Shown here: piece by piece, positions 48,999 through 60,308 of the stretch
Position numbering within the stretch: the first letter of the stretch is position 1
Layout of the letters: every line of letters begins with the position of its first letter
Origin: Enterobacter phage vB_ExiM_F4M1E
DNA: 64,000 nt
Sequence record: OL744216.1
Direction: 5' to 3' (one strand)
Notes under the pieces: model-generated
The model's database searches: none
Seen by the model: only the letters and a program-made list of their open reading frames with translations
What the model was told of the DNA's origin: nothing
Made by a program: the position numbers and the translations under genes

Positions 48999-49027
48999 TT
49001 GACCTGCCAGGCAAGCCGGGCCACAAT
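48999..49027 (+). promoter_or_regulatory. promoter of array gene 1: TTGACC-N17-CACAAT
   Basis: spacer contains GGCAAGCCGGGCC. Confidence 0.45.
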
Positions 49028-49057
49028 GCAGGCACACCAACAAAAGGAGATCGACCC

Positions 49058-49390
49058 ATGCAACAGACGAAATATTTTATTGAAGGAACAGCCGCCGCCC
49101 ACGCCGGGCAGATCCGCGCCTGCCGCTACAATAAAGAAGAGAACCGCCGCGAATGGTTCGCCGGGTTCGATAGTGTGGATCGTGGTTTCGCCGTGTTTAA
49201 GATCCTCCCTGGCCCCGGCGCTGTTAAGCTGGCTGACCTGGACCCCGTTTATATTGGTGGCGTTAAACAATGCCAGGATCGCGCCGTTACCCTGCAACAG
49301 ACAGACCGCGCCGGGCGCTATGTCATTTATGATATGGCAACGGGCAAGCCGTACCAGGAAAGCACAAAATTAAATTACAAAAATATTTAA
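49058..49390 (+). CDS. array gene 1, hypothetical (110 aa)
   Basis: AAAAGGAGA RBS; GC-rich codons. Confidence 0.55.
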   Translation: MQQTKYFIEGTAAAHAGQIRACRYNKEENRREWFAGFDSVDRGFAVFKILPGPGAVKLADLDPVYIGGVKQCQDRAVTLQQTDRAGRYVIYDMATGKPYQESTKLNYKNI

Positions 49391-49417
49391 AATAATGCTT
49401 GACGGGGCCGACGATAG
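49389..49417 (+). promoter_or_regulatory. family promoter TTGACG-GGGCCgacgataGGCCC-CATAAT
   Basis: 17-nt spacer with GGGGCC/GGCCCC inverted repeat; CACATAGCGACGCAC motif follows. Confidence 0.6.
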
Positions 49418-49479
49418 GCCCCATAATTCACCACATAGCGACGCACACCGCGCCGCACTAACAAAGAGAGACCGTCATC

Positions 49480-49917
49480 ATGTTACATTCAATCAATAAA
49501 GAGCAAAAACTGTACGTCCTGAAGTGTGGCAACGGCTTTACCTGCTATGGGTTCGAAGTGCTGGACACAAACGCCCGCAAGGTTAAGCAGTGGTTAGAAT
49601 CTGAAGGTGCAACAGTTGAGGATCTGCCATATCGCAAGGGCACAAAGAAGCATTATAAAGCCTGTCAAGATATGATCGCCGCTGGTTGTGCTTATCATGC
49701 CAGAACGGGCAAACGCTGCCTTGCTGGACTCACCAAACAATTAAAGGGCCTGGAGGGTCGCCGGGTAGAAGTGATCACAATGTACGGCGAAAAGCGCCGC
49801 TTTATTGTGGGTCGCTCTACTGGCTGGATGCCTGCCCACCTGGAGATCGCCCGCGCTAACAGTAGCGGCGGCATGAGTGCAGAGCAGCAATATAAATCTG
49901 TAACCATCGTAAAATAA
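49480..49917 (+). CDS. array gene 2, hypothetical (145 aa, Cys-containing)
   Basis: CA-rich leader CTAACAAAGAGAGACCGTCATC-ATG. Confidence 0.55.
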   Translation: MLHSINKEQKLYVLKCGNGFTCYGFEVLDTNARKVKQWLESEGATVEDLPYRKGTKKHYKACQDMIAAGCAYHARTGKRCLAGLTKQLKGLEGRRVEVITMYGEKRRFIVGRSTGWMPAHLEIARANSSGGMSAEQQYKSVTIVK

Positions 49918-49930
49918 TTTAAAAAGAGTA

Positions 49931-49959
49931 TTGACACCGGGGCCACCTGGCCCCATAAT
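49931..49959 (+). promoter_or_regulatory. family promoter TTGACA-ccGGGGCCAccTGGCCCC-ATAAT
   Basis: consensus -35/-10, palindromic spacer; GCCCGGCAAA direct repeat follows. Confidence 0.6.
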
Positions 49960-50007
49960 ACAAACAAGCCCGGCAAATGGTGCCCGGCAAAATCAGAGAG
50001 TAAAGAA

Positions 50008-50230
50008 AATGGCTAAAGTAACCTATAAAAAATCACGTGGCGTCTCCTCTGTTAACCTGGCGGCGGTTGTAACCCTGCCCGCATACCGTACCCGTGACGA
50101 GGCGCGCGCCGTTGCCAGTAAGATCCGCGCCGCTGGCGTGACTCCGACAACGCCAACCAAAACGGCGGACGGCTGGCGCGTTACCGCAAAGCATAACGGC
50201 GGCACACTTTCCCGCAACACTCACCGCTAA
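50008..50230 (+). CDS. array gene 3, hypothetical (73 aa, start MAKVTYKK)
   Basis: AGAGAGTAAAGAAA RBS. Confidence 0.5.
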
Positions 50231-50239
50231 CCAATTGCA

Positions 50240-50262
50240 GGCCCCGCCGGGGGCCTTTTGTG
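50240..50262 (+). terminator. terminator-like hairpin GGCCCC-gccg-GGGGCC + TTTTGTGT
   Basis: same palindrome as promoter spacers, here followed by a T-run. Confidence 0.45.
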
Positions 50263-50275
50263 TGGAGTCAGTACC

Positions 50276-50620
50276 ATGACCAAACAGATCTACCATGTAC
50301 CGATCACGCCGCTTTTCCGTTGTCATATCTTTTATGACTGTAATGATCTTGCGGGGCAATGGATCGGCGATACCGATCAACAATATGATTTCCCGGAATG
50401 GGACGAACTAAACCGCCGTGTAAGCAACGCCGCACACAATGCCGATCCTGATAGCCTGGCGGACGTGGAACACTTCCCCGGCGGGGCCGCTTGCTTTCCT
50501 TATATTGAGATCACCGCGCCAACGTGGGCGCTATGTAAAGCGATGGGCGACGCCGTGATCCGTTGCATCCTGGACAATGGCGGGATCGTCGAACCAAAAG
50601 ACAACGGAATAAATATTTAA
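50276..50620 (+). CDS. array gene 4, hypothetical (114 aa, start MTKQIYHV)
   Basis: GGAGTCAGTACC RBS. Confidence 0.5.
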   Translation: MTKQIYHVPITPLFRCHIFYDCNDLAGQWIGDTDQQYDFPEWDELNRRVSNAAHNADPDSLADVEHFPGGAACFPYIEITAPTWALCKAMGDAVIRCILDNGGIVEPKDNGINI

Positions 50621-50639
50621 ATTATTTTCGTTTTAGGGG

Positions 50640-50668
50640 TTGACGCCGCCCGGGGTTACCCTCATAAT
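50640..50668 (+). promoter_or_regulatory. family promoter TTGACG-N17-CATAAT
   Basis: followed by CACATAGGGCGACGG motif. Confidence 0.55.
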
Positions 50669-50720
50669 GTACCACATAGGGCGACGGAATAACCCGCCGC
50701 CAAAACCAAAAGGTAACAGT

Positions 50721-50960
50721 ATGCAAACCGTAATGATTAGCCACCCGGATCACGCTTCAGACTTCTACGCCCCGATCTACGCCCCGCTTGATTGGCAACG
50801 CCAGGGCCTGCAAAAAACCGCCACGGGCTATGGCACAAAGATCCCAACGTCCTATATGTTGGACTATCAAGGCAAGCGCCGTCGGATCTACGTTGACCAG
50901 TACAGCAACAGCGGCCACACTTACATCATGATCAAAGGCGAAAAAATTACGGTCTGCTAA
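50721..50960 (+). CDS. array gene 5, hypothetical (79 aa, start MQTVMISH)
   Basis: CA-rich leader + AAAAGGTAACAGT. Confidence 0.5.
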   Translation: MQTVMISHPDHASDFYAPIYAPLDWQRQGLQKTATGYGTKIPTSYMLDYQGKRRRIYVDQYSNSGHTYIMIKGEKITVC

Positions 50961-50969
50961 AAATAATTG

Positions 50970-50998
50970 TTGACCGGGGGCCGGAAAGGCCCCATAAT
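50970..50998 (+). promoter_or_regulatory. family promoter TTGACC-GGGGGCCggaaaGGCCCC-ATAAT
   Basis: 17-nt palindromic spacer. Confidence 0.6.
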
Positions 50999-51030
50999 AC
51001 CAGACATACCAAACAAACGAGGCTTTACAA

Positions 51031-51261
51031 ATGAATCTGACTACTATCGGCGCTAACCAAACTATGATCACCCTGGCAAATGGCGCACAGGTTTTCTTTT
51101 CCTACAATACCCCGGTTGCGGCATACCTGCCCGGAGAGGGCTACTTGGTGACCGCCACAAAGCACAGCGCCACCACCTCAAAGCATGTTAATGCTTGGGC
51201 TGGCAAAGGTTGCGAGACCCGCCCACAGGAATTTTTTGATAATCTTATCAAATCCGCTTGA
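51031..51261 (+). CDS. array gene 6, hypothetical (76 aa)
   Basis: leader ACCAAACAAACGAGGC. Confidence 0.5.
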   Translation: MNLTTIGANQTMITLANGAQVFFSYNTPVAAYLPGEGYLVTATKHSATTSKHVNAWAGKGCETRPQEFFDNLIKSA

Positions 51262-51287
51262 CGCTGGTTTCTGCCGGGGTATATAAT
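51258..51287 (+). promoter_or_regulatory. family promoter TTGACG-N18-TATAAT with CCGGGG-tatataat-CCCCGG palindrome spanning -10
   Basis: palindrome arms flank the -10 hexamer. Confidence 0.55.
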
Positions 51288-51339
51288 CCCCGGCATAGGC
51301 AAGCGAAAGCAAACAACCAAACCGAAAGGATACCAAACG

Positions 51340-51720
51340 ATGAATATTTTCAACACTGTAAACGCCGCCGACATCAAAGAAATTTCCGTAACTGGCAAAC
51401 GTTGGTTTCAGCGTAGCTATGGCAACACGTATCACAGCGTAAGCGTCGCCGCCGTGGTATCACGTGAGACAGCCGAAAACTTGGGGGCTAATCCATCCCC
51501 GGCGGGATCTGGCGACGTGTGGATCGACCTGGGTTATGTTGGGTTCGCTTATGGTTATGATCGCGGGTTCGAACAAACCGCCCTGGCTATCCTGATCGAG
51601 GCTGTAAGCGATGCGCCGCAGGACTGGAAACAAAATTCATACGCTTGCCAGGTGGCAACGGCTTTAAATGTGCCTTACTCCGAAAACGTTTATGATGTTA
51701 GCCGCAAAAAGGATTTATAA
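51340..51720 (+). CDS. array gene 7, hypothetical (126 aa)
   Basis: leader CAAACAACCAAACCGAAAGGATACC. Confidence 0.55.
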   Translation: MNIFNTVNAADIKEISVTGKRWFQRSYGNTYHSVSVAAVVSRETAENLGANPSPAGSGDVWIDLGYVGFAYGYDRGFEQTALAILIEAVSDAPQDWKQNSYACQVATALNVPYSENVYDVSRKKDL

Positions 51721-51726
51721 TTTAGG

Positions 51727-51756
51727 TTGACACGGGGCCGGGTTAGGCCCCATAAT
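51727..51756 (+). promoter_or_regulatory. family promoter TTGACA-cGGGGCCgggttaGGCCCC-ATAAT
   Basis: palindromic spacer. Confidence 0.6.
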
Positions 51757-51788
51757 ACCCACAGACCCAAACAAAAGAGTAAAACGCG

Positions 51789-51998
51789 ATGATTAACGAG
51801 CAGCAAGTAAACGACGTAAAACATGAGGCTTATCAGGTGGCGATCCGTAGTGGTTCCCGCGCCGCCTTCAATCTGGTTGTTGAGTTGTACCCTGAACAGG
51901 CGGAAAATATTTTAATGCAGGTTTCCGTATTACTGGAAGCAACAAAGCACACCAAATTAAGCGCCGGGATCGATAAGCTGGCAAAAAGTTTAAAATAG
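51789..51998 (+). CDS. array gene 8, hypothetical (69 aa)
   Basis: leader CCCAAACAAAAGAGTAAAACGCG. Confidence 0.5.
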   Translation: MINEQQVNDVKHEAYQVAIRSGSRAAFNLVVELYPEQAENILMQVSVLLEATKHTKLSAGIDKLAKSLK

Positions 51999-52002
51999 TT
52001 GT

Positions 52003-52031
52003 TGACTCTTACCCCGTCCCGCTGGCATAAT
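52003..52031 (+). promoter_or_regulatory. family promoter TTGACT-N17-CATAAT with GTCCCGCT...AGCGGGAC palindrome spanning -10
   Basis: 8-bp arms flank the -10. Confidence 0.55.
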
Positions 52032-52086
52032 AGCGGGACTGATTAAGAGAAACACCACACAAACCAAACTAAAGAGAGTAAACATT

Positions 52087-52476
52087 ATGAACGCTAATTA
52101 TGACTTTTCCCAAATGGTTGTCGCATCCTCTACCGATCTGCGTAACTTCCGCAAAGAAAATAACTTTTACAAGGCCGTTCACCTGGTCGGGCTGGTAGAC
52201 GGGGAGATCAAAGATCTGGCGGAGGTTTCATTCTACGGCACCGGGAAAACCAACACGGCTATTTTGTGGATTCACTCCCCGATCCTGTCTCTCTATGGTT
52301 CAAGCGCTGGCAAGGCTGGCGGCTACGGTTACAACCGTGAGGACGCCGCTTTTCAAAGCGCCTTGCGGGGAATGGGGATCAAAAGTACAGGTTACGAATT
52401 GCCACGTGATTTTTTCCCGGCGCTTGCAAAGCATTTAGGGGTTGATGTATACTCAATCATCGAATCACACGGTTAA
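52087..52476 (+). CDS. array gene 9, hypothetical (129 aa)
   Basis: leader ACCACACAAACCAAACTAAAGAGAGTAAAC. Confidence 0.55.
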   Translation: MNANYDFSQMVVASSTDLRNFRKENNFYKAVHLVGLVDGEIKDLAEVSFYGTGKTNTAILWIHSPILSLYGSSAGKAGGYGYNREDAAFQSALRGMGIKSTGYELPRDFFPALAKHLGVDVYSIIESHG

Positions 52477-52481
52477 TATGA

Positions 52482-52796
52482 ATGATAACTATTCTCACAA
52501 TGCTGGGACTTGCGGCGGCGGCGATTTACTGCGTCGCTACTTATAAAGCGTCTGTATGGCGAAAGGGTCAAAAAATGTACGGCTATTTTGAATATGAGTA
52601 CAAAGGGGAGAAGGGATCAAGCCGGGACTATGGCGCGATGTTAGAGATCGATATGGTTGGCGCGATGAACTACCGCCAGGAGTTGGGCGCGGTGATCACG
52701 TATGAAGTTTACAAGTCATCTGAGGATGAGATCGGGCAGATAATTGATCAACGTTACTATATGGAACAGCAACAAAACAAACGCCGGAGAAAATGA
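52482..52796 (+). CDS. array gene 10, membrane-anchored protein (104 aa)
   Basis: N-terminal TM helix ILTMLGLAAAAIYCVATY. Confidence 0.5.
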   Translation: MITILTMLGLAAAAIYCVATYKASVWRKGQKMYGYFEYEYKGEKGSSRDYGAMLEIDMVGAMNYRQELGAVITYEVYKSSEDEIGQIIDQRYYMEQQQNKRRRK

Positions 52797-52933
52797 GAAT
52801 GATTCACACTAACGAGAACCGCCAAAAGGCACGACCCCGCGCCCGCCTGTCATATGCTGAAGCCGAGGACCGCCTACAGCGTGAAAAGAGCAACAAACAA
52901 CAGCGCCGCAAAACGCGCTATAACTGGGAGTAA
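52793..52933 (+). CDS. array gene 11, basic micro-protein (46 aa, MRMIHTNEN...)
   Basis: ATGA overlap; its start codon context AAATGAGAATGATT is itself a Fur-like/ATTCTCAT box. Confidence 0.3.
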   Translation: MRMIHTNENRQKARPRARLSYAEAEDRLQREKSNKQQRRKTRYNWE

Positions 52934-52977
52934 GCGCCCCGGCAGGGAAACACTAGGCCAAACCGTTTAAACCGCAC

Positions 52978-53005
52978 AGGGGGCCTTACAGGCCCCTTAT
53001 TTTTG
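52978..53005 (+). terminator. rho-independent terminator GGGGCC-ttaca-GGCCCC + TTATTTTT
   Basis: family palindrome used as terminator stem with a T-run. Confidence 0.6.
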
Positions 53006-53009
53006 ATCT

Positions 53010-53249
53010 ATGGGGTACACAATGCAAAACCTTTACAGCATGACAGAATTTATCCGCCTCCTGGCGGGCCGTCCGATGGGCTTTACCTGCCTTTACTTGG
53101 TAAACGACGGCAAAGGCTACCGGATAACCTCAAAGTCATTAGCCGCCATTGCAGCGCGGGAAGGGGTGAAGATCTCCACCTCTCAGGCGCTCATTGTTGA
53201 CCCGGCGACCGTGGCGACGATTGAGGCGATCCGAGTCACCGTAAAATAA
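53010..53249 (+). CDS. array gene 12, hypothetical (79 aa; alternative start 53022)
   Basis: no dedicated promoter, may be read through. Confidence 0.4.
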   Translation: MGYTMQNLYSMTEFIRLLAGRPMGFTCLYLVNDGKGYRITSKSLAAIAAREGVKISTSQALIVDPATVATIEAIRVTVK

Positions 53250-53273
53250 TTCAAATATTTTCATTCCGGGGCT

Positions 53274-53301
53274 TGACGCCCGGCCCCGGTTCCCCCATAA
53301 T
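53274..53301 (+). promoter_or_regulatory. family promoter TTGACG-N16-CATAAT
   Basis: followed by CACATAGCGACGCACACCGCGACGCAC direct repeat. Confidence 0.55.
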
Positions 53302-53352
53302 ACACCACATAGCGACGCACACCGCGACGCACCAAACAAAAGAGAGTCCGTA

Positions 53353-53772
53353 ATGTCTACTAAAAATCCTTTCCGCATCAAATCAGGTTTATCCGTTTAC
53401 GCACTGGCTTGCGGCTACGTTCAGCAAATCGACACCGAAGTAACCGGGGAAAGTATCCGGGTACAATTGAGAATGGAACACGGCGCGTTTCACGTGCAGG
53501 CGTACAACTTCACCGAACACGGGCGGATCGAATGGGTAGTAGAGGACATGATCGGCGACGCTCGCACACAATGGCAACGCCTTGTAAATCAGATTTTTGG
53601 CGACACCATAAAGGCGACCAAAAAGGATCGCCGCTATACGGTAAATCGTGAGTATCGCGGGGAGAGTGACCCGGCGTATGTGACCCGCTTTTGTGGGGAG
53701 TATGTAGACTACAGCGACACCGCCGCCGCTGGCTGGATTAAGGCCGCAGAACACAAGGCCGGAAAACTTTAA
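53353..53772 (+). CDS. array gene 13, hypothetical (139 aa)
   Basis: leader CACCAAACAAAAGAGAGTCCGTA. Confidence 0.55.
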   Translation: MSTKNPFRIKSGLSVYALACGYVQQIDTEVTGESIRVQLRMEHGAFHVQAYNFTEHGRIEWVVEDMIGDARTQWQRLVNQIFGDTIKATKKDRRYTVNREYRGESDPAYVTRFCGEYVDYSDTAAAGWIKAAEHKAGKL

Positions 53773-53780
53773 AATAGTTG

Positions 53781-53810
53781 TTGACGCCGGGCACCGTCCC
53801 GGCTTACAAT
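53781..53810 (+). promoter_or_regulatory. family promoter TTGACG-CCGGGcaccgtCCCGG-cttACAAT
   Basis: variant palindrome CCGGG/CCCGG. Confidence 0.55.
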
Positions 53811-53841
53811 ACCCAAACACAAACAAAAGAGAGTCAACACC

Positions 53842-53994
53842 ATGAAACATTATTTAGTAAACATCCCTGGCGTGGCTGGCCCGCTGAAAGTTTACGGCTA
53901 CGACGAACAGGACGCAAGAAAGCGCCTACGTGATCGGGAAGGGTACGGATCACGCCTCCCACGTGGCACAAAACTTTATTTGCAAAACGCTTGA
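53842..53994 (+). CDS. array gene 14, micro-protein (50 aa)
   Basis: leader CACAAACAAAAGAGAGTCAACACC; 3' end overlaps the next promoter. Confidence 0.4.
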   Translation: MKHYLVNIPGVAGPLKVYGYDEQDARKRLRDREGYGSRLPRGTKLYLQNA

Positions 53995-54020
53995 CGTGTG
54001 GTTATGCCGTCGCCTACAAT
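53991..54020 (+). promoter_or_regulatory. family promoter TTGACG-N18-TACAAT with TATGCCGT...ACGGCATA palindrome spanning -10
   Basis: 8-bp arms flank the -10. Confidence 0.5.
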
Positions 54021-54066
54021 TACGGCATAGACAAACGAAAGCAGACAACCAAACGAGGGTTAAATT

Positions 54067-54360
54067 ATGTTTGAAGTATTCGCCGGAATGTGCTTTTATG
54101 CCGCCGCCGCTTTAAAGCAGTGTGATGATTTTGTTGTGGAGTCCTACGACGATCCGCTGACGTGTGAGATCGTGGCGACCGATTACCGCCAGGACACCCG
54201 CTGGATTAACCCGGCTTGTATTCCATCGCCAGAAGTCGAACCGATGCCAGAAGGCGAAGAGATTCAAGATCCTGCCGTGGCTGTTACCTCGTTTTTTGTG
54301 GATAATCTGGACGCCGCCGCGCTGGTCCAAATGTACGCAAGCCAGGAGGCCGCACAATGA
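54067..54360 (+). CDS. array gene 15, acidic hypothetical (97 aa)
   Basis: leader CAAACGAAAGCAGACAACCAAACGAGGG. Confidence 0.5.
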   Translation: MFEVFAGMCFYAAAALKQCDDFVVESYDDPLTCEIVATDYRQDTRWINPACIPSPEVEPMPEGEEIQDPAVAVTSFFVDNLDAAALVQMYASQEAAQ

Positions 54361-54500
54361 ACCACAGCCGCAACATTGCAAAGCGCCGCCGCCCTAATTC
54401 CAGCGCCGCCAATGATGAGCGCCGGATCGCTGGTTTCATCGCTTGCGGCTACACCGTACAGCAGGCCCGGCAAATGGTAAAAGCAAAAGGCAGAAAATAA
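54357..54500 (+). CDS. array gene 16, basic micro-protein (47 aa)
   Basis: ATGA overlap with gene 15. Confidence 0.35.
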   Translation: MNHSRNIAKRRRPNSSAANDERRIAGFIACGYTVQQARQMVKAKGRK

Positions 54501-54503
54501 TTG

Positions 54504-54754: not shown

Positions 54755-54784
54755 TTGACGCCGGGCACCGCCCCGGCTTATAAT
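54755..54784 (+). promoter_or_regulatory. family promoter TTGACG-CCGGGcaccgcCCCGG-cttATAAT
   Basis: near-duplicate. Confidence 0.55.
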
Positions 54785-54814
54785 TACCGAACACAAACAA
54801 ACGAGGCTACAAAA

Positions 54815-55114
54815 ATGCAACAGGCAAACACTCTTTTCATTCTGGCAAACGTAGCGGATCACGTTGTGGCGTCACTGTCCAACGTGGCGGGCACCGTGCA
54901 GATCATTTGCCGCCATATGGATGACACCGCGCCGAACCGCCTACAAATCAACGTAGACCGTAAAGGGGCCGACTTTGTGATCTCTTATGATGCCATTTAC
55001 AACGGGCGGCGCTTTATGCAGGCCAAAAGCGACCCGATCCCGGCTAACTACATTCAGGAGGCGATCGCCGTCCTGGTAAACGACACTATCCCGGCGGGGG
55101 CTATGTTACCATGA
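54815..55114 (+). CDS. array gene 18, hypothetical (99 aa, start MQQANTLF)
   Basis: leader ACACAAACAAACGAGGCTAC. Confidence 0.5.
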   Translation: MQQANTLFILANVADHVVASLSNVAGTVQIICRHMDDTAPNRLQINVDRKGADFVISYDAIYNGRRFMQAKSDPIPANYIQEAIAVLVNDTIPAGAMLP

Positions 55115-55266
55115 ATCCGCATAAACTTTTAATCACCGCCTACCCAAACAAGGCGGATCGCCGTGAAACTTTGGACCGCTTAACCCTGTATTATCAGGAG
55201 GCCGGGCACAGTAAAGCGACGGCCCGCGCCTTGGCTAAAAAACGTTTACGTTTTGGTAAAAATTAG
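55111..55266 (+). CDS. array gene 19, basic micro-protein (51 aa)
   Basis: ATGA overlap. Confidence 0.35.
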   Translation: MNPHKLLITAYPNKADRRETLDRLTLYYQEAGHSKATARALAKKRLRFGKN

Positions 55267-55267
55267 C

Positions 55268-55296
55268 TTGACGCCCGGCCCGAAAGGGCCGATAAT
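55268..55296 (+). promoter_or_regulatory. family promoter TTGACG-cCGGCCCgaaaGGGCCG-ATAAT
   Basis: followed by CACATAGGGCG + GCGGGGA-atggt-TCCCCGC hairpin. Confidence 0.6.
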
Positions 55297-55342
55297 CTCT
55301 CACATAGGGCGGGGAATGGTTCCCCGCATTATCTAAGAGGTT

Positions 55343-55501
55343 ATGAATATGTTTACTTTGATGACTTGGGAACACGAATCAAGCGCCCCTGTCCGCCGGA
55401 CCTTTGAAAACTTATGCGCCGCTTATCGCCTGGCGCAAGGCGGTTACTATAAAGCCCAAATCATCGACGAAAATAATATTGTAATGTACGAATTTAAATG
55501 A
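55343..55501 (+). CDS. array gene 20, micro-protein (about 51 aa)
   Basis: TAAGAGG RBS; two in-frame ATGs. Confidence 0.4.
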   Translation: MNMFTLMTWEHESSAPVRRTFENLCAAYRLAQGGYYKAQIIDENNIVMYEFK

Positions 55502-55530
55502 TTGACATCCGGCCCGAAAGGGCCGATAAT
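55502..55530 (+). promoter_or_regulatory. family promoter TTGACA-tCCGGCCCgaaaGGGCCG-ATAAT
   Basis: duplicate of 55268 promoter. Confidence 0.6.
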
Positions 55531-55566
55531 GACCCCACACCAAACAAAAGAGAGAGAGACCGTAAA

Positions 55567-55773
55567 ATGATTACTATGATTCTTCAAAAGTCCCGCCTGA
55601 TTGATGTTACCGTTACCCTGTCCGCTTGCGGTGACACGTCCCGCCGGGCCGATCATTACCAGGTGACCGCTGTTAGTGATCGCGGCGCTGTCCTGCTGTC
55701 TGAAGTAACAGAGCATTTGCACGAGGCTTTTAAAACCTATTCAAAGTGGAAAGGCGACGAAGAAATAAAATAA
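55567..55773 (+). CDS. array gene 21, hypothetical (68 aa, start MITMILQK)
   Basis: leader CACCAAACAAAAGAGAGAGAGACCG. Confidence 0.45.
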   Translation: MITMILQKSRLIDVTVTLSACGDTSRRADHYQVTAVSDRGAVLLSEVTEHLHEAFKTYSKWKGDEEIK

Positions 55774-55781
55774 AAATCCGC

Positions 55782-55811
55782 TTGACGCCGGGGCCACGTT
55801 GGCCCCATAAT
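55782..55811 (+). promoter_or_regulatory. family promoter TTGACG-ccGGGGCCAcgtTGGCCCC-ATAAT
   Basis: palindromic spacer. Confidence 0.6.
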
Positions 55812-55845
55812 GCCACCACACCAAACGAATAAAGAGAATCACAAA

Positions 55846-56100
55846 ATGTTAAAATTCATCAAATCACTTTTCACCCGCACCACCCCGGCTTGCAAGTTGC
55901 CACCCCTGGAGGCTAAAGGCGTGATCGCTCGCAAAGTCTCAGAATTGTTTATCATTTCATTGGTTCACAACGGCGGAGACTGTTACGAAATCATCGAAAT
56001 GGGCCGCTACACTAAAACAGGGTCAAGCCGTGTCCGTTACGGTGAACACCGCGCCCGGAATCATTTTGATTCTGTATGCTGTATGGTGGGTGCAAAATAA
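55846..56100 (+). CDS. array gene 22, hypothetical (84 aa, start MLKFIKSL)
   Basis: leader CACCAAACGAATAAAGAGAATCAC. Confidence 0.5.
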   Translation: MLKFIKSLFTRTTPACKLPPLEAKGVIARKVSELFIISLVHNGGDCYEIIEMGRYTKTGSSRVRYGEHRARNHFDSVCCMVGAK

Positions 56101-56103
56101 ACC

Positions 56104-56132
56104 TTGACGGGGCCAACGTTAGGCCCCATAAT
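56104..56132 (+). promoter_or_regulatory. family promoter TTGACG-GGGCCaacgttaGGCCC-CATAAT
   Basis: followed by CACATAGGGCGACAC motif. Confidence 0.6.
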
Positions 56133-56184
56133 GTAACACATAGGGCGACACAACGCCGCCCACAAACAGAAAAGAGATCGTAAA

Positions 56185-56544
56185 ATGAGCAAATACACCC
56201 CGTGGGAACCAATGTACAAAATCACCCTGTCCGAGTGCAGCAAAAACGAACTGGATGGAATTGTCCGCGCCGCTACTGCCGTGATCCGTGGGCTTAACTT
56301 CAAACGTTTAACCTTCAAAGAAGTAAAACAAATTTTTGAAATGCCGGATCACAAGGCCGCTTCCCGCTTGGGGCTTACTGTAACATCGCAAGGGCTTTAC
56401 AAAGATCACGACCTTAAAGGGCCGCACGTGTGGCTTTTAGCTTGCGCCGTGGGCCGCACCATTGCCGACACTATCAAAGAGATGAAAGCGCTACGCGATG
56501 ACGCAAAAGCCCGCCGGGCCGCGCTGGAAGTGGCACAAAAATAA
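56185..56544 (+). CDS. array gene 23, hypothetical (119 aa)
   Basis: leader CACAAACAGAAAAGAGATCG. Confidence 0.55.
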   Translation: MSKYTPWEPMYKITLSECSKNELDGIVRAATAVIRGLNFKRLTFKEVKQIFEMPDHKAASRLGLTVTSQGLYKDHDLKGPHVWLLACAVGRTIADTIKEMKALRDDAKARRAALEVAQK

Positions 56545-56557
56545 TTTAAAAATAAAG

Positions 56558-56587
56558 TTGACGCCGGGAAGCGTTACGGGCTATACT
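56558..56587 (+). promoter_or_regulatory. family promoter TTGACG-N18-TATACT
   Basis: degenerate palindrome CCGGGaagcgttaCGGG. Confidence 0.45.
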
Positions 56588-56635
56588 CTTTTCATCGGGT
56601 CACAACAGACCAAAACAAACAAAGAGAGAAACAAA

Positions 56636-56713
56636 ATGAGCGTAATCTTCCTGGTATCTGTTTTCGTAGCTATCGCATCTTCTACCGCAATTTGTATCAA
56701 ACTGGGATACTAA
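56636..56713 (+). CDS. array gene 24, 25-aa hydrophobic peptide (MSVIFLVSVFVAIASSTAICIKLGY)
   Basis: own promoter and leader ACCAAAACAAACAAAGAGAGAAAC; single TM helix. Confidence 0.4.
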   Translation: MSVIFLVSVFVAIASSTAICIKLGY

Positions 56714-56717
56714 TAAA

Positions 56718-57110
56718 ATGACTACTTTCAACGTTTTAAACTTAAACGCTTTTATCGCGGGTTACATTGAGGCAATGTTTTTTGCAGAGTCCGCCACCGA
56801 TAGCGACGGCGAAGAAATCGAAAGTTTAGCCGGGTATGAGTTAAGCGCTGAAGCCCTGGACGCTGCCCGCATGGATTGCGCCCGCTTTATGGATGTTGCG
56901 CCGCTGTTACTCAAAGGGGCAATGTTGGCAGGGGTTGACTACGACCACACCCAGGCAGGCCGGGATCTATGGTTTAGCCGTCAAGGTCACGGCGTAGGAT
57001 TCTGGGATCGCGGACTTGGGACGATCGGTGATAAACTTCACGACGTGGCGCAGACTTTCGGATCAAAAAATCTGTTTATCAATGATGCTGGATTTATTGA
57101 GGTAGAATAA
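56718..57110 (+). CDS. array gene 25, acidic hypothetical (130 aa)
   Basis: follows peptide gene. Confidence 0.5.
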   Translation: MTTFNVLNLNAFIAGYIEAMFFAESATDSDGEEIESLAGYELSAEALDAARMDCARFMDVAPLLLKGAMLAGVDYDHTQAGRDLWFSRQGHGVGFWDRGLGTIGDKLHDVAQTFGSKNLFINDAGFIEVE

Positions 57111-57571
57111 TGAACCTTACAGATCTGAAGTATTACGATGAATTAACCCCAGCGGCGCAAGCTGAAGCCCGGCGCAACGTTGCCGCCAGTGTGCAGACTC
57201 ACCACGGGCGGGAAATCGGAAAGGCGTTTTTTAAATTCCAGCGGGACCCAAACAAGGCGATCAATGACCCGCTACACATCCGCCGGATCGTCAACGGCGG
57301 CGAAGCGTGGCGCAAGATCCGCCAGGAGGGCGACGCCTATCTAATCCGCTTTATCCGGTCCAATAAAGTGATCTTTACTGATTGCGGTGCGTATGTGGCG
57401 TATGTGGACGCCTTCACAATGTTTATTGATGGGTTGGAATACATACCCACAGCCGAACAGCAAAAGACGCTTAGAACGCCTTACATCGACGTTAACGGGC
57501 GCGGCCCGGCGTTTCATAATTGGCTATACCGTATGCACCACAAAATAAAGTTTTTCATGATCCGGGGTTGA
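57110..57571 (+). CDS. array gene 26, hypothetical (153 aa)
   Basis: ATGA coupling. Confidence 0.5.
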   Translation: MNLTDLKYYDELTPAAQAEARRNVAASVQTHHGREIGKAFFKFQRDPNKAINDPLHIRRIVNGGEAWRKIRQEGDAYLIRFIRSNKVIFTDCGAYVAYVDAFTMFIDGLEYIPTAEQQKTLRTPYIDVNGRGPAFHNWLYRMHHKIKFFMIRG

Positions 57572-57596
57572 CACCCGGCGGAATAGGGCCGATAAT
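57568..57596 (+). promoter_or_regulatory. family promoter TTGACA-N17-GATAAT
   Basis: followed by CTCATAGGGCG + CGGGGA-atgg-TCCCCG hairpin; overlaps the end of gene 26. Confidence 0.55.
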
Positions 57597-57649
57597 GTCT
57601 CTCATAGGGCGGGGAATGGTCCCCGGCCCAATGACCTGGAGTCAGTACA

Positions 57650-57901
57650 ATGGAAATCAAACACGTAATTTCTGCAAACGTCGCCGTTTTAGGTTCTGTA
57701 AGTGAAACCCGTGTGAGTCTCGCTAAATGGTGCGCCGCTCAAACTTTCGGGAGTTACGGCGAAAAGGTAACAGAGGTTAAGCGCTTGCTTTCCTTTGGTA
57801 ACGTGGGCCGCAAGTTGTTAACAGAGGATATCGCCCGCCGGGTTGAGATCCATTATTCACTTGCTCAAATCATCGTAAAAGAGATCGAAAGCGTAATTTA
57901 A
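57650..57901 (+). CDS. array gene 27, hypothetical (83 aa)
   Basis: GGAGTCAGTACA RBS. Confidence 0.5.
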   Translation: MEIKHVISANVAVLGSVSETRVSLAKWCAAQTFGSYGEKVTEVKRLLSFGNVGRKLLTEDIARRVEIHYSLAQIIVKEIESVI

Positions 57902-57909
57902 CCCGGCCC

Positions 57910-57925
57910 GGCCCCGCAAGGGGCC
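57910..57925. repeat. promoterless GGCCCC-gcaa-GGGGCC hairpin
   Basis: family palindrome without -35/-10 or T-run. Confidence 0.35.
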
Positions 57926-57937
57926 AACAGAGGACAA

Positions 57938-58162
57938 ATGAGAATGATTATCAAAAACACTTTGGGCAAAACTGATTTTCTGCGCTCGCTGGAGATCGGC
58001 AAGCCGCAAGCCTGGTATTGTAAAAAGCTGGCGCATGATGAAATGAAAGATTTTACAGCCACGTTAACCCGCGTTAAAATCAGCATTACCCAAAAGAAAG
58101 CGCTTTTAGTGATTGAGGGGCAGATCCCGCAAACCGTGATCATTGTTGAGAGGACCGCATAA
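57938..58162 (+). CDS. array gene 28, hypothetical (74 aa, MRMIIKN)
   Basis: AGAGGACAA RBS; start context AAATGAGAATGATTATCA is a Fur-like box. Confidence 0.45.
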   Translation: MRMIIKNTLGKTDFLRSLEIGKPQAWYCKKLAHDEMKDFTATLTRVKISITQKKALLVIEGQIPQTVIIVERTA

Positions 58163-58163
58163 A

Positions 58164-58388
58164 ATGGGGGCCAATACTCGCAACCGCTACGGCATAACGC
58201 GCCGTTTCGGGGTCTGCTATATGCTGGCAGATGATCCACAATATCGGGCCTTGCTGGAGGCTTACCAGGTCACCAAACTGGACGCCCAAAAGGGCCGGGC
58301 CGAACACGACGCCCACACCGCCAACATTAAAGCGCTTCACGACTTTTTAGCCGTCGCGGAAAAGCGTCACGACATCCGCCACAATTGA
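58164..58388 (+). CDS. array gene 29, hypothetical (74 aa, start MGANTRNRYG)
   Basis: GAGAGGACC RBS. Confidence 0.45.
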   Translation: MGANTRNRYGITRRFGVCYMLADDPQYRALLEAYQVTKLDAQKGRAEHDAHTANIKALHDFLAVAEKRHDIRHN

Positions 58389-58398
58389 GGGCCGAACC

Positions 58399-58593
58399 AT
58401 GATCACAGCTTCAGAGATCCGCCAAACGTTAGCCGCCTTGCGTTACCTCCACGCCTTACGCCGGGAAAGTGATCCGACTTATGCCGGGTCATGCCTGGCT
58501 AACGATGCCGAAAACGGGATCGCCACACTGAAAGAATTAAATGATCGCATGAGCGACAGCGACCGATCCGACTTTATCGGGGGCGAAATATGA
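58399..58593 (+). CDS. array gene 30, hypothetical (64 aa)
   Basis: ORF. Confidence 0.45.
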   Translation: MITASEIRQTLAALRYLHALRRESDPTYAGSCLANDAENGIATLKELNDRMSDSDRSDFIGGEI

Positions 58594-58898
58594 TCGCCAT
58601 TACGCCAACCGTTTTAGATTGGTATCGCCAGCAGATCGCGCCGCCGCTGGCTATCTTCAAACAGGCCGAAAGCAAACAGCGCCGGATCTCCATTCATGAG
58701 ATCATTACGCTTAACGCTGGGCAGAAAATGAATGTTTCCCGGTCCCATATGGGCAACACGTTAGCGCTTTTAAGTTTACGCCGCAAGCGTCAACGGTTAA
58801 CCCTGGAATCACTCCGCATGATGGGACAGCCGCACCAGGTCACCGGGGACAGGATCGCCAGGGCATGGAACCGGGCAAACAGTCGAAAGGCTGGATGA
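58590..58898 (+). CDS. array gene 31, hypothetical (102 aa)
   Basis: ATGA coupling. Confidence 0.45.
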   Translation: MIAITPTVLDWYRQQIAPPLAIFKQAESKQRRISIHEIITLNAGQKMNVSRSHMGNTLALLSLRRKRQRLTLESLRMMGQPHQVTGDRIARAWNRANSRKAG

Positions 58899-59041
58899 AT
58901 TAACAGTGTTCACAGGGGTTGACTTGTTCGCCCCTTTTTTGTTATCCTTTTGTCATGCGATGGCACCTGATGCAGGGGGAGACAAACACCGGACCTGCCC
59001 GCTATTCAGGGAGGCGGACCGGACCTGGGCCGCGCCGGGCA

Positions 59042-59063
59042 AATGAGAATGGTTATCATTCCC
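59042..59063. promoter_or_regulatory. Fur-like / ATTCTCAT box AATGAGAATGGTTATCATTCCC in intergenic region
   Basis: 14/19 match to Fur consensus. Confidence 0.35.
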
Positions 59064-59317
59064 AACAAAATCAAATACATACTTTAAAACCGTTGTCAAA
59101 TTTATTTCTTACCCCTGTATAAATGTACATGCCCGCCAAACGCTCTAAAACGCGTTTTAAGCCGTTTTGCCCTTCCCCGGTATCCTACACCATAAAAATA
59201 TAGATCGCCCGAAATCGGACTTTCGCACTTTTTGTCCTTGCAAACGTGAAATTTTTATGTTAGGCCTGAAGGGCTGAAAGCCGGGTGTACGTTGACAAAA
59301 CTTTACAAAACTCCCTA

Positions 59318-59346
59318 TTGACGCCCGGCCCGTTATCCCTGATAAT
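59318..59346 (+). promoter_or_regulatory. family promoter TTGACG-N17-GATAAT (second TTGACA 26 nt upstream)
   Basis: followed by CTCGTAGGGCGGC motif. Confidence 0.55.
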
Positions 59347-59398
59347 GTATCTCGTAGGGCGGCAATGATGCGACGGCCCACAAAGAGGGGACAGTAAA

Positions 59399-59638
59399 AT
59401 GAAAGAAATCATGACCTTGGTAAAATCCCGTATGTTACGTGGCGGATTCAACGCATACGCCGACGGCAATATCATTGCCACGGTCGCAAAAGTTACAAAA
59501 AATGATAATGATTCTCAGTTCGCCGGGCAGTATCGGATCTGTTTTACCCGTGGAAAGTTGCAAGGTAAAACGGCATACGCACCAGATTTTCAAGAGCTTA
59601 ATGATCGTATTTGCGCCGTTTTAGATTTTGCAAAATAA
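59399..59638 (+). CDS. array gene 32, hypothetical (79 aa)
   Basis: AAAGAGGGGACAGTAAA RBS. Confidence 0.5.
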   Translation: MKEIMTLVKSRMLRGGFNAYADGNIIATVAKVTKNDNDSQFAGQYRICFTRGKLQGKTAYAPDFQELNDRICAVLDFAK

Positions 59639-59641
59639 ATG

Positions 59642-59670
59642 TTGACGCTGGGGCCGAAAGGCCCCATAAT
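59642..59670 (+). promoter_or_regulatory. family promoter TTGACG-ctGGGGCCgaaaGGCCCC-ATAAT
   Basis: palindromic spacer. Confidence 0.6.
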
Positions 59671-59715
59671 ACCCACTCAAGCAACAAACCACTAAAAACA
59701 CTGGAGACCGTAAAA

Positions 59716-60030
59716 ATGACCAAATCTAAATTTTTCGAAATGCTGGATCGCTACCTGTCAAGCCATAACGAGTGGGCCAAACTGGGCAACGGGTACGACT
59801 CATACAAGGCCGAACAGTTAAAACCTTATGTTTTCCATGAGGACCCGGCGAACCTGGAGAAGTGGAAAGCGAAAGATCCGTCCTATCCTTGGACCGCTCA
59901 CGCTTCAGGCTTTACCCTGGCTGATTGTTGGCATGTTGAGGTAATGCAACATAAAACCGCTGAAGCCGCCGAAAAACAGCACGTAATTTTCACCCGCTGG
60001 ATCGCAGACTATCAAAAGGCCCGCGCTTAA
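59716..60030 (+). CDS. array gene 33, hypothetical (104 aa, start MTKSKFFEML)
   Basis: CTGGAGACCGTAAAA RBS. Confidence 0.5.
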   Translation: MTKSKFFEMLDRYLSSHNEWAKLGNGYDSYKAEQLKPYVFHEDPANLEKWKAKDPSYPWTAHASGFTLADCWHVEVMQHKTAEAAEKQHVIFTRWIADYQKARA

Positions 60031-60275
60031 TGTCCCGGCTTTTTAAAATCAATCTTCCATTGTGGGCCGCTTTAGCGGTCCTCATTGCCTTTTCTGGCGA
60101 TACGGTCAACAATTGGATTTTGTCCGCTGTACTTGGACCCGATCAAATGGTCACAACATTTTTAAACGCTTTCGGCGCTACACTGGCAACGGCCCGCCTT
60201 GCCTATCGTGGCAAATCAATAAACCGTTATGATCTGGCGCTATCACTGCCCGCCCTGGTTACCTGCCTAAACTGA
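60030..60275 (+). CDS. array gene 34, membrane protein (81 aa)
   Basis: two TM helices; ATGA overlap. Confidence 0.5.
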   Translation: MSRLFKINLPLWAALAVLIAFSGDTVNNWILSAVLGPDQMVTTFLNAFGATLATARLAYRGKSINRYDLALSLPALVTCLN

Positions 60276-60279
60276 AGAG

Positions 60280-60308
60280 GCCCGCCACCCCGGCGGGCTT
60301 TTCTTTTG
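60280..60308 (+). terminator. rho-independent terminator ending the plus-strand block
   Basis: GCCCGCC-acccc-GGCGGGC + TTTTCTTTT. Confidence 0.7.

Follow-up and report, generated by a model that had tools for sequence, protein, structure and literature searches.

Cassettes resembling promoter early stem-loops in a micro-gene array of a Certrevirus-like Enterobacter phage

Positions 48999 to 60308 of a 64,000-nucleotide stretch of Enterobacter phage vB_ExiM_F4M1E (OL744216.1; the whole stretch is referred to as the window) hold an array of 34 small open reading frames (ORFs) served by 21 σ70-type promoters, most of which contain a short GC-rich stem-loop. Our findings point to cassettes of the type described in T4-like phages as promoter early stem-loops (PeSLs), in which the stem would act in plus-strand read-through RNA while the cassettes themselves provide homology for gene shuffling; we put the probability of this explanation as a whole at about 70%. 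Judging from sequence comparison, the phage is a Certrevirus-like myovirus (rV5-like, Vequintavirinae), and the array constitutes its hyperplastic gene block, which is presumed to be early. The array matches Certrevirus genomes, including POP17/18, KaOmega, CR3, CR8, CR9, phiTE, CB7, and PcCB7V, in many pieces, with 82–92% identity and 35–81% coverage; the matches to Certrevirus and related genomes comprise 73 records. Members of Certrevirus are rV5-like myoviruses of the Vequintavirinae, with sizes of about 145–155 kb. The comparisons reported here cover the syntenic regions of six Certreviruses (phiTE, KaOmega, POP17, CR3, PcCB7V, and CR9), the more distant Salmonella phage SSBI34, which is the seventh relative, and the Vequintavirus Murica.

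Promoters and the stem-loops within them

A search of both strands for TTGACN, a spacer of 16–18 nt, and NA[TC]A[AC]T returned 22 matches on the plus strand from 48999 to 59670; the minus strand of the array yielded no match. The match at 50893 lies inside a gene and is probably due to chance, which leaves 21 promoters. The pattern TTGAC-N18-20-ATAAT occurs 22 times in the window, 17 of them within the array, against an expectation of 0.33 ± 0.53 obtained from 100 dinucleotide shuffles. These results bear out a previous reading of this DNA made from the sequence alone (hereafter, the sequence-only reading), which had described stereotyped consensus promoters preceding small ORFs. The −10 hexamers are CATAAT (10 promoters), GATAAT (four), TATAAT (three), TACAAT (two), CACAAT (one), and TATACT (one). 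In a generic promoter scan, the 21 sites agree with the consensus at 9–12 of 12 positions, and all except P48999 at 10 or more.

The sequence around these promoters is equally stereotyped. The 20 nt preceding the −35 hexamer average 74% AT, compared with 50% in the window, and in 19 of the 21 cassettes the stop codon of the upstream gene lies between −4 and +23 nt from the −35 hexamer. Gene ends and promoters are packed in an extremely compact manner: the TGA within the −35 TTGAC is itself the stop codon of g06, g14, and g26 (51258–51261, 53991–53994, and 57568–57571), and the stop codon of g20 (55499–55501) abuts the next −35 hexamer. Some cassettes are near-duplicates, as previously noted; 53763–53831 and 54737–54805 share 87% identity over 69 nt, and the cassettes at 55268 and 55502 share 90% over 30 nt.

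We searched for perfect inverted repeats between the −35 hexamer and about +8 and compared the counts with 1000 composition-preserving shuffles. Repeats of at least 5 bp are present in 16 of the 21 promoters (shuffle mean, 3.0) and repeats of at least 6 bp in 14 (shuffle mean, 0.7); none of the 1000 shuffles attained the observed counts. GC-rich repeats occur in 15 promoters, 12 within the spacer and three bracketing the −10 hexamer, and fall into four classes. Class A (seven copies) reads GGGGCC-N3-7-GGCCCC and ends on the first base of CATAAT; class B (three copies) reads (G)CCGGG-N6-CCCGG(C), followed by T and then TATAAT or TACAAT; class C (two copies) reads CGGCCC-gaaa-GGGCCG, followed by ATAAT. 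Class D, which the sequence-only reading overlooked, comprises the three promoters at 51258, 52002, and 53991, in which 8-bp repeats bracket the −10 hexamer and leave it in the loop. Spacer stems enclose loops of 3–8 nt and −10-bracketing stems loops of up to 11 nt, the register of the stem relative to the −10 hexamer varies, and the 15 stems have RNA fold energies of −10 to −21 kcal/mol. A T-rich tail, flagged by a terminator scan, follows the class B stems only (TTATAATT; three to five T in the next 8 nt). The six promoters at 48999, 50640, 53273, 56558, 57568, and 59318 contain no convincing hairpin, so the earlier statement that the spacer is almost always an inverted repeat holds for the majority of cassettes and was somewhat overstated.

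Comparative evidence shows that the pairing of these stems is itself under selection, and we regard this covariation as the most useful new point of the analysis. The loops drift freely (acct, gata, gaaa, ggaaa, gggtta, gacgata, aacgtta, and others), and the stems persist. Across the seven relatives, the stems take the forms GGGGCC/GGCCCC, GGGGCG/CGCCCC, GGCCCC/GGGGCC, GCCGGGA/TCCCGGC, and CGGCCC/GGGCCG; SSBI34, for instance, carries GGGGCG/CGCCCC and, with the arms swapped, GGCCCC/GGGGCC instead of GGGGCC/GGCCCC. Similarly, the −10-bracketing stems exist in 16 distinct versions that always keep 8–12 paired positions, among them TGCCGGGG/CCCCGGCA, TGCCGGGT/ACCCGGCA, TATGACCG/CGGTCATA, TATAGGTC/GACCTATA, and TATGTGGGG/CCCCACATA. 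Each of their pair positions 4–10 is occupied by two to four Watson-Crick pair types, with at least three at positions 5, 7, 8, and 10 (class D pairs were counted by script from the conserved outer end; a MAFFT alignment put the inner pairs out of register). At least four unrelated stems, variable loops and register, and compensatory changes together imply selection on base-pairing rather than on a sequence recognized by a protein. Mismatches, moreover, have a direction. On the plus strand, the single-mismatch stems among 192 distinct promoters comprise nine G·T against two C·A, and the non-Watson-Crick positions tabulated for class D comprise 10 G·T or T·G against one C·A and two C·T. This direction fits pairing in plus-strand RNA, in which G·U is tolerated.

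Each cassette runs from an AT-rich tract with the stop codon of the preceding gene, through a σ70 promoter (TTGACR, 17–18 bp, nATAAT), a stem-loop, and a leader, to one to three tiny ORFs. Their closeness to consensus suggests that the promoters are strong and early; host RNA polymerase would fire at every cassette on DNA entry, and each micro-gene would be expressed separately. The predicted start site lies downstream of the right arm or within its last bases, which means that the hairpin would form only in read-through RNA coming from the upstream cassette and not in the transcript of its own promoter. By analogy with a PeSL of phage RB49, a stem in that RNA would attenuate or pause transcription, or cap the 3′ end of the upstream message, and any of these effects would keep expression from piling up along 20 tandem strong promoters, thereby equalizing it. 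The positions of the hairpin-less promoters fit this idea, although the comparison was made post hoc: four of the six have no actively promoted gene just upstream, whereas none of the 15 hairpin promoters is so placed. P48999 opens the array, P50640 and P53273 each come after a promoterless gene that lies behind a canonical terminator, and P59318 follows a 420-nt non-coding stretch.

The same design is present outside the array. A divergent promoter stands back-to-back with P48999 and is conserved in six of six Certrevirus relatives. Further promoter-hairpin copies lie in the replication and ATPase modules (Table 1); the design is thus general to the σ70-type promoters of this phage and extends beyond the micro-gene block.

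Cassette exchange and competing explanations

Comparison with the relatives supports the earlier view of the array as a modular, recombining block, since both its gene content and its promoter classes are mosaic. Genes g02, g09, g16, g21, g23, g28, g29, g31, g32, and others are variably present or absent among the phages compared, so that cassette content proves variable between related phages, and the nearest relative switches between adjacent genes, for example from KaOmega at g06 to POP17 at g07, at the cassette. Orthologous genes also stand behind different promoter classes. The promoter of g14 is class B here and in POP17 and class A in four other phages; that of g17 is class B, class A, or lacking; those of g18, g23, and g03 are class A or B; and that of g20 is class C or B. 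Such replacements imply crossovers inside cassettes. In POP17, which lacks g02, a single promoter is a chimera whose upstream part resembles P49931, whose bases after the −10 hexamer (TCACCACA) resemble P49399, and which continues into the g03 leader. Of 51 clusters of homology breaks, 17 fall in cassettes, which make up 17% of the sequence (p = 0.003); other gene junctions account for many more. These comparative footprints establish cassette-wise exchange in the aligned sequences. As to mechanism, the recurring promoter-plus-leader units of 50–100 bp would serve as portable homology through which recombination could insert, delete, or swap single genes with their regulation intact.

The promoter-plus-stem design is found in all six Certreviruses and in SSBI34. 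In Murica (42% GC), consensus promoters are few in the syntenic block and spacer palindromes are absent from it, indicating that the palindrome is not subfamily-wide; the leader hairpin of Murica is described below. An exact scan of IMG/VR for TTGAC-N1-6-GGGGCC-N3-8-GGCCCCATAAT retrieved 18 stretches, of which 14 came from four genomes of 142–153 kb and four were single copies on contigs of 20–98 kb, and a BLAST search with one cassette retrieved Certrevirus together with Vequintavirinae-sized phages of Klebsiella, Salmonella, and Cronobacter. Single class A-like cassettes (AAAATAA..TTGACA.GGGGCC.N4.GGCCCCATAAT) also adjoin the DNA polymerase gene in Pseudomonas syringae phages of about 98 kb, including phiPsa374, phiPsa300, psageK4, and others, and in the IMG/VR loci L012 and L024. 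Judging by host and size, the phiPsa374-like phages appear to belong to a different group, and their cassettes point to either horizontal spread or convergence.

Several observations weigh against the PeSL-type explanation. Class A and C stems are followed by ATAATnn and class D stems by GGCAAGCG or GACAAACG, with zero to three T in the next 8 nt; by their sequence, the stems of these three classes are not canonical intrinsic terminators, and the array elsewhere uses three canonical terminators with T-runs. The G·T bias comes from a small set of about ten cases that are partly non-independent. Hairpin-less P56558 and P57568 do follow transcribed genes. Breaks are enriched in cassettes only modestly, about two-fold, and selection on viable recombinants would be expected to produce part of this enrichment under any mechanism. 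Finally, a literature search for Vequintavirinae transcriptomes or 5′-end maps returned nothing usable, and timing, promoter activity, and the effect of the hairpin are therefore inferred.

The sequence-only reading had proposed that a single factor recognizing the spacer palindrome controls all promoters at once. Such a global operator, bound by one dimeric phage or host protein that switches every early promoter, would account for palindromes lying in the spacer or over the −10 hexamer, where a bound protein would block RNA polymerase, and for the right arm of class A, GGCCCC, always abutting ATAAT; these phages must also have some means of shutting off early transcription, and the genus has no known phage RNA polymerase (PMC7344957). 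However, one genome contains at least four unrelated half-sites, with more in the relatives, the arms are 3–8 nt apart in spacer stems and up to 11 nt apart in −10-bracketing stems, the register shifts, and six of the 21 promoters have no palindrome. The arms vary through compensatory substitutions, arm swaps, and G·T wobbles that keep pairing and not a recognition sequence. We consider the operator quite improbable. A structure in the DNA itself is unlikely, too, although it would use the same selected pairing. Here, cruciforms or hairpins would extrude at the repeats when the DNA is supercoiled or transiently single-stranded, class D displaying the −10 hexamer in a loop and spacer hairpins pulling the −35 and −10 hexamers out of register, so that promoter strength would depend on topology, a concept like that of phage N4 but with the host polymerase. 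The repeats are indeed embedded in the promoter rather than beside it, and the AT-rich −10 hexamer of class D is exactly the loop, which would favor extrusion. On the other hand, stems of 5–7 bp with loops of 4–7 nt are generally short for stable cruciforms, the full double-stranded σ70 consensus with 17–18-bp spacing is intact, and the known analogue, a PeSL, acted as a terminator (PMC2839356). The plus-strand excess of G·T over A·C also points to one strand, or RNA, since in a cruciform G·T on one strand equals A·C on the other.

The mosaicism at cassette level and the swapping of promoter classes could alternatively reflect structure-specific recombination, with the hairpins targeted by a phage nuclease or recombinase that moves cassettes in the manner of integron attC sites. 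The authors of the PeSL work speculated along similar lines and detected PeSL mini-circles in RB49 and phi1 (PMC2839356), and relatives of the present phage carry many homing endonucleases (PMC7344957). Nevertheless, Pfam scans of the 34 ORFs revealed no integrase or recombinase, either within the array or next to it; exchange points occur throughout the promoter, the leader, and the gene ends instead of at one position in the stem; and ordinary homologous recombination on repeats of 50–100 bp would suffice. This possibility is accordingly as doubtful as the operator. It is very improbable that the palindromes have no function and are passengers copied along with a promoter that spreads by duplication. 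Several cassettes are recent copies of one another and the class A stem sequence hardly varies, but divergent phages preserve pairing, despite freely drifting loops, by arm swaps and by double substitutions that compensate for each other; inverted repeats exceed their frequency in shuffles about five-fold (≥5 bp) to twenty-fold (≥6 bp); and the same arrangement arose or was kept in unrelated T4-like phages. A bolder possibility, and a long shot, is that the stem-loops are an active structural code at the DNA level, either hairpin- or cruciform-gated promoters for the host polymerase or recognition structures for a dedicated cassette-exchange enzyme. Gated promoters would amount to a topology-dependent master switch for the whole early program, and an exchange enzyme would imply that a lytic phage possesses an integron-like system for gene capture whose cassettes carry promoters.

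Genes, leaders, and other features of the array

The features of the array and of related sites in the window are compiled in Table 1.

Table 1. Coordinates of the array, its promoter cassettes, genes, terminators, and non-coding stretch, and of promoter-hairpins elsewhere in the window. P, promoter named by the first position of its cassette; g, gene; aa, amino acids; pI, isoelectric point; TM, transmembrane. Hairpins are given as left arm, loop, and right arm.
Feature	Position	Strand	Description
Whole array	48999–60308	+	34 small ORFs, 21 σ70-type promoter cassettes, 3 canonical terminators, one 420-nt non-coding stretch
P48999	48999–49057	+	TTGACC-N17-CACAAT, no hairpin, CA-rich leader; first array promoter; drives g01
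g01	49058–49390	+	110 aa, phrog_12835 (function not assigned)
P49399, class A	49399–49479	+	Spacer hairpin 49404–49422 GGGGCC.gacgata.GGCCCC; −10 CATAAT; 5′ GC leader hairpin CATAGCGACGC...; drives g02
g02	49480–49917	+	145 aa, 5 Cys; among relatives only in phiTE and KaOmega, replaced or absent elsewhere
P49931, class A	49931–50008	+	Hairpin 49939–49954 GGGGCC.acct.GGCCCC; leader hairpin GCCCGGCAAATGGTGCCCGGC; drives g03
g03	50009–50230	+	73 aa, pI 11.6; sub-threshold SPOR match (E 1e-3, below Pfam cut-off)
Terminator	50239–50256	+	Canonical intrinsic; AGGCCCCGCCGGGGGCCT then TTTGTG
g04	50276–50620	+	114 aa, acidic, 5 Cys; no own promoter, behind terminator 50239
P50640	50640–50720	+	TTGACG-N17-CATAAT, degenerate spacer, no stem ≥5 bp; leader hairpin CATAGGGCGACGG...CCGCC; after promoterless g04, itself behind terminator 50239; drives g05
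g05	50721–50960	+	79 aa
P50970, class A	50970–51030	+	Hairpin 50977–50993 GGGGCC.ggaaa.GGCCCC; drives g06
g06	51031–51261	+	76 aa; identity 100% KaOmega, 79% POP17
P51258, class D	51258–51339	+	8-bp repeat 51272–51295 TGCCGGGG.tatataat.CCCCGGCA, −10 in loop; −35 TTGA (51258–51261) contains g06 stop codon; drives g07
g07	51340–51720	+	126 aa; identity 98% POP17, 72% KaOmega
P51727, class A	51727–51788	+	Hairpin 51734–51751 GGGGCC.gggtta.GGCCCC; drives g08
g08	51789–51998	+	69 aa
P52002, class D	52002–52086	+	Repeat 52016–52039 GTCCCGCT.ggcataat.AGCGGGAC, −10 in loop; drives g09-g10-g11
g09	52087–52476	+	129 aa
g10	52482–52796	+	104 aa, TM segment at N-terminus
g11	52793–52933	+	46 aa, pI 11.2, ATGA-coupled
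Terminator	52978–52998	+	Canonical intrinsic; AGGGGGCCTTACAGGCCCCTT then ATTTTTG
g12	53022–53249	+	75 aa; no own promoter, behind terminator 52978
P53273	53273–53352	+	No stem ≥5 bp; leader hairpin CATAGCGACGCACACCGCGACGC; after promoterless g12, itself behind terminator 52978; drives g13
g13	53353–53772	+	139 aa
P53781, class B	53781–53841	+	Hairpin 53786–53803 GCCGGG.caccgt.CCCGGC, then T+TACAAT; drives g14
g14	53842–53994	+	50 aa
P53991, class D	53991–54066	+	Repeat 54003–54029 TATGCCGT.cgcctacaatt.ACGGCATA, −10 in loop; −35 contains g14 stop codon; drives g15-g16
g15	54067–54360	+	97 aa, acidic, 4 Cys
g16	54357–54500	+	47 aa, pI 11.8, ATGA-coupled
P54504, class B	54504–54571	+	Hairpin 54510–54525 CCGGG.caccgt.CCCGG, then CTTATAAT; perfect 12/12 consensus; drives g17
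g17	54572–54751	+	59 aa
P54755, class B	54755–54814	+	Hairpin 54760–54777 GCCGGG.caccgc.CCCGGC, then TTATAATT (terminator-like in scan); drives g18-g19
g18	54815–55114	+	99 aa
g19	55111–55266	+	51 aa, basic, ATGA-coupled
P55268, class C	55268–55342	+	Hairpin 55276–55291 CGGCCC.gaaa.GGGCCG; −10 GATAAT; leader hairpin GGGCGGGGAATGGTTCCCCGC; drives g20
g20	55343–55501	+	52 aa, Pfam DUF7170 (E 2e-20)
P55502, class C	55502–55566	+	Hairpin 55510–55525 CGGCCC.gaaa.GGGCCG; directly after g20 stop; drives g21
g21	55567–55773	+	68 aa
P55782, class A	55782–55845	+	Hairpin 55790–55806 GGGGCCA.cgt.TGGCCCC; drives g22
g22	55846–56100	+	84 aa, 4 Cys
P56104, class A	56104–56184	+	Hairpin 56109–56127 GGGGCC.aacgtta.GGCCCC; leader hairpin GGGCGACACAACGCCGCCC; drives g23
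g23	56185–56544	+	119 aa
P56558	56558–56635	+	TTGACG-N18-TATACT, no real stem; nearly unchanged in 7/7 relatives; drives g24-g25-g26
g24	56636–56713	+	25-aa hydrophobic peptide; conserved in 7/7 relatives
g25	56718–57110	+	130 aa, acidic
g26	57110–57571	+	153 aa
P57568	57568–57649	+	Degenerate class C, 4-bp stem only (57576–57591); leader hairpin GGGCGGGGAATGGTCCCCGGCCC; −35 contains g26 stop; drives g27, probably g28-g31 by read-through
g27	57650–57901	+	83 aa
g28	57938–58162	+	74 aa
g29	58164–58388	+	74 aa
g30	58399–58593	+	64 aa
g31	58590–58898	+	102 aa, pI 11.9; sub-threshold ParB-HTH match
Non-coding stretch	58899–59317	+	420 nt inside array, no credible ORF
P59318	59318–59398	+	TTGACG-N17-GATAAT, no GC hairpin, structured leader; drives g32
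g32	59399–59638	+	79 aa; no homologue in seven relatives
P59642, class A	59642–59715	+	Hairpin 59649–59666 TGGGGCC.gaaa.GGCCCCA; drives g33-g34
g33	59716–60030	+	104 aa
g34	60030–60275	+	81 aa, TM protein
Terminator	60276–60302	+	Canonical intrinsic, closes array; 11-bp stem then CTTTTG
Divergent promoter	48946–48974	−	TTGACG-N17-CATAAT, spacer GGCCC.gcc.GGGCC; back-to-back with P48999
Outlying promoter-hairpin	39179–39206	+	GGCCCAT.atata.ATGGGCC over −10
Outlying promoter-hairpin	9624–9652	−	GGGGCC.ggaa.GGCCCC in spacer; directly after stop of 667-aa ORF
Outlying promoter-hairpin	5893–5922	−	GACCG.ataatgg.CGGTC over −10

The array contains 34 ORFs of 25–153 aa, as counted before; 21 are promoter-proximal and the other 13 are either coupled, the gaps ranging from −4 to +10 nt, or located behind terminators. 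The earlier impression that the proteins have no recognizable domains was sustained. Pfam scans, run on 30 of the 34 ORFs one at a time and on all 34 as a batch, yielded DUF7170 in g20 as the sole family above threshold and only sub-threshold matches to SPOR, GYD, RWP-RK, and ParB-HTH; the array proteins were assigned to 31 PHROG families, none with an assigned function; PADLOC returned nothing; and sequence searches of the PDB with the six largest proteins (g02, g07, g09, g13, g25, and g26) gave nothing below E = 0.01. Roles in host takeover or anti-defense are plausible by position only. The basic, TM, and Cys-rich types reported before are all present, with basic micro-proteins encoded by g03, g11, g16, and g31 (pI >11), TM peptides by g10, g24, and g34, and a few proteins containing 4–5% Cys.

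These genes had also been described as rich in GC and in GCC codons. The latter is correct: compared with long ORFs elsewhere in the window, the codon shares are 0.40 vs 0.28 for GCC, 0.53 vs 0.23 for CGC, and 0.45 vs 0.29 for GGC, and array genes prefer C-ending over T-ending codons relative to replication genes. The overall GC content of the coding sequences, in contrast, is equal, at 0.510 in the array and 0.513 in the rest of the window. The AT skew of the array is strongly positive (+0.11 to +0.16), and its coding strand is T-poor throughout, beyond the leaders.

The leaders are CA-rich, as the sequence-only reading had claimed, with 45% A, 26% C, 21% G, and 9% T against about 25% of each in the window. 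In nine of them, a CATAG motif is directly followed by a GC hairpin at the start of the leader. In Murica, the CATAG leader hairpin reads CATAGGCGGGAAAACTTCCCGCC (about 6640–6675), and the form in the present array is CATAGGGCGGGGAATGGTTCCCCGC (leaders at 50678, 55306, 56142, and 57606). The leader hairpin is common to Certrevirus and to a distant, AT-richer Vequintavirus, and thus predates the spacer palindromes and is spread more widely than they are; it may act as a stabilizer of the mRNA 5′ end.

Genes g04 and g12, which have a Shine-Dalgarno sequence and no promoter of their own, lie immediately 3′ of the canonical terminators at 50239–50256 and 52978–52998, an arrangement that implies expression only by terminator read-through. 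The promoters that follow these two genes are ones without hairpins. Between g27 and g28, a stand-alone GC hairpin at 57905–57925 (GGCCCCGCAAGGGGCC, with a GCAA loop) resembles the promoter stems in being of G-run/C-run type and is accompanied by neither a T-run nor a promoter.

The non-coding stretch at 58899–59317 shows 91% column identity in five phages (the window, KaOmega, POP17, CR3, and CR9), exceeding that of the flanking genes, and is absent from phiTE and PcCB7V. Indels of 1 nt in its T- and G-runs would frameshift any ORF. It contains promoter-like sites at 58919 (TTGACT-N18-TATCCT) and tandem TTGAC motifs at 59292 and 59318, and has no Rfam match. It could represent a non-coding RNA or another cis element; its identification as the phiTE pseudo-ToxI antitoxin RNA was considered and rejected.

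Elsewhere in the window, the left 37 kb carries, on the minus strand, a replication module with DNA polymerase, primase-helicase, and Dda-like helicase genes, and the 38–48 kb region carries, on the plus strand, an ATPase gene and other genes. ARAGORN detected no tRNA or tmRNA in the 64-kb window, and an Rfam scan of 47000–64000 at E ≤ 1 detected no families, with three sub-threshold hits attributable to chance.

Relation to known systems

The array is not a new kind of system. The sequence-only reading treated its design as new; however, both the promoter array (PMC7344957) and the combination of promoter and stem-loop, in the form of PeSLs (PMC2839356, PMC4122927), have been published. Buttimer et al. 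(2020, PMC7344957) reported a putative σ70-like Certrevirus promoter, AAAA(N3-4)TGTTGAC(N17-19)TATAAT, with 13 sites in CB7, 21 in CR3, 21 in CR8, and 13 in CR9 in the region of short hypothetical ORFs, and no RNA polymerase gene in the genus. Ours is the same element in the same syntenic region of the same genus (phiTE, CR3, CR9, KaOmega, POP17, and PcCB7V), and the few copies reported in the replication module have counterparts here at 39179 (+), 9652 (−), and 5922 (−). That work describes −35, −10, and UP elements only, makes no mention of a palindrome, hairpin, stem-loop, or inverted repeat, and did not analyze cassette exchange. What is new here is the stem-loop and its proposed shuffling role in a lineage where only the promoter was known.

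Three other systems share part of the design. As in intrinsic terminators, a GC hairpin follows the stop codon by 10–25 nt and, in class B, is succeeded by the T-rich TTATAATT; unlike them, most promoter hairpins lack a U-tract, and separate canonical terminators are present at 50239, 52978, and 60276. Integron arrays likewise consist of tandem small ORFs with imperfect palindromes in which pairing is conserved over sequence, and their content varies cassette by cassette. Integron cassettes, however, are promoterless, whereas each cassette here brings its own promoter, its palindromes measure 15–27 nt and lie inside promoters, and no integrase domain occurs in the array ORFs. The early promoters of phage N4 also have short GC-stem hairpins as an integral part, but they possess no −35/−10 consensus and need the giant virion RNA polymerase, in contrast to the full σ70 consensus found here.

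The closest counterpart is the PeSL, described from the hyperplastic regions of RB49 and phi1, two T4-like phages (Arbiol, Comeau and Krisch, 2010, PMC2839356) and extended to T4/PST and KVP40/nt-1 (Comeau et al., 2014, PMC4122927). A PeSL is defined as a σ70 promoter with an AT-rich tract and a stem-loop, mostly in the −35/−10 interval or overlapping the −10 hexamer and often of the form GGGG...CCCC; one stem-loop of RB49 lowered lacZ expression roughly as strongly as did the rrnB T1 terminator, and recombination between PeSLs explained indels and produced mini-circles (PMC2839356). As far as sequence can tell, the array matches this definition feature by feature, with consensus σ70 promoters (9–12 of 12 positions), an AT-rich tract that includes the stop codon of the preceding gene, a short stem-loop of the G-run/C-run form in the −35/−10 interval or over the −10 hexamer in 15 of 21 cassettes, dense tandem placement between small ORFans in a hypervariable region, and indels or replacements between close relatives bounded by cassettes, the last with a modest enrichment here. 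It differs in its lineage, which is Vequintavirinae/Certrevirus (about 50% GC) and not T4-like, in stems that fall into a few sharply defined sequence classes, and in leaders that are also modular (CA-rich, with a 5′ CATAG hairpin). Promoter, terminator, and mini-circle activities have been measured for PeSLs, whereas the present cassettes are known from their sequence.

Our literature search found no paper on PeSLs beyond T4-like phages. The present findings therefore extend PeSL-type cassettes to unrelated large lytic myoviruses of the Certrevirus/Vequintavirinae lineage, whose members are under development for the biocontrol of Pectobacterium, Cronobacter, and Klebsiella. The cassettes mark individually swappable genes that are natural candidates for host-takeover and anti-defense screens, and they could also be used as compact parts combining a strong promoter with an insulator. 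The compensatory changes in the stems provide clean comparative evidence of selection on the hairpin, which earlier PeSL work did not show. The occurrence of such cassettes in this lineage as well as in T4-like phages suggests that accessory early genes are expressed and exchanged by means of a promoter-stem-loop design that is either convergent or widely shared.

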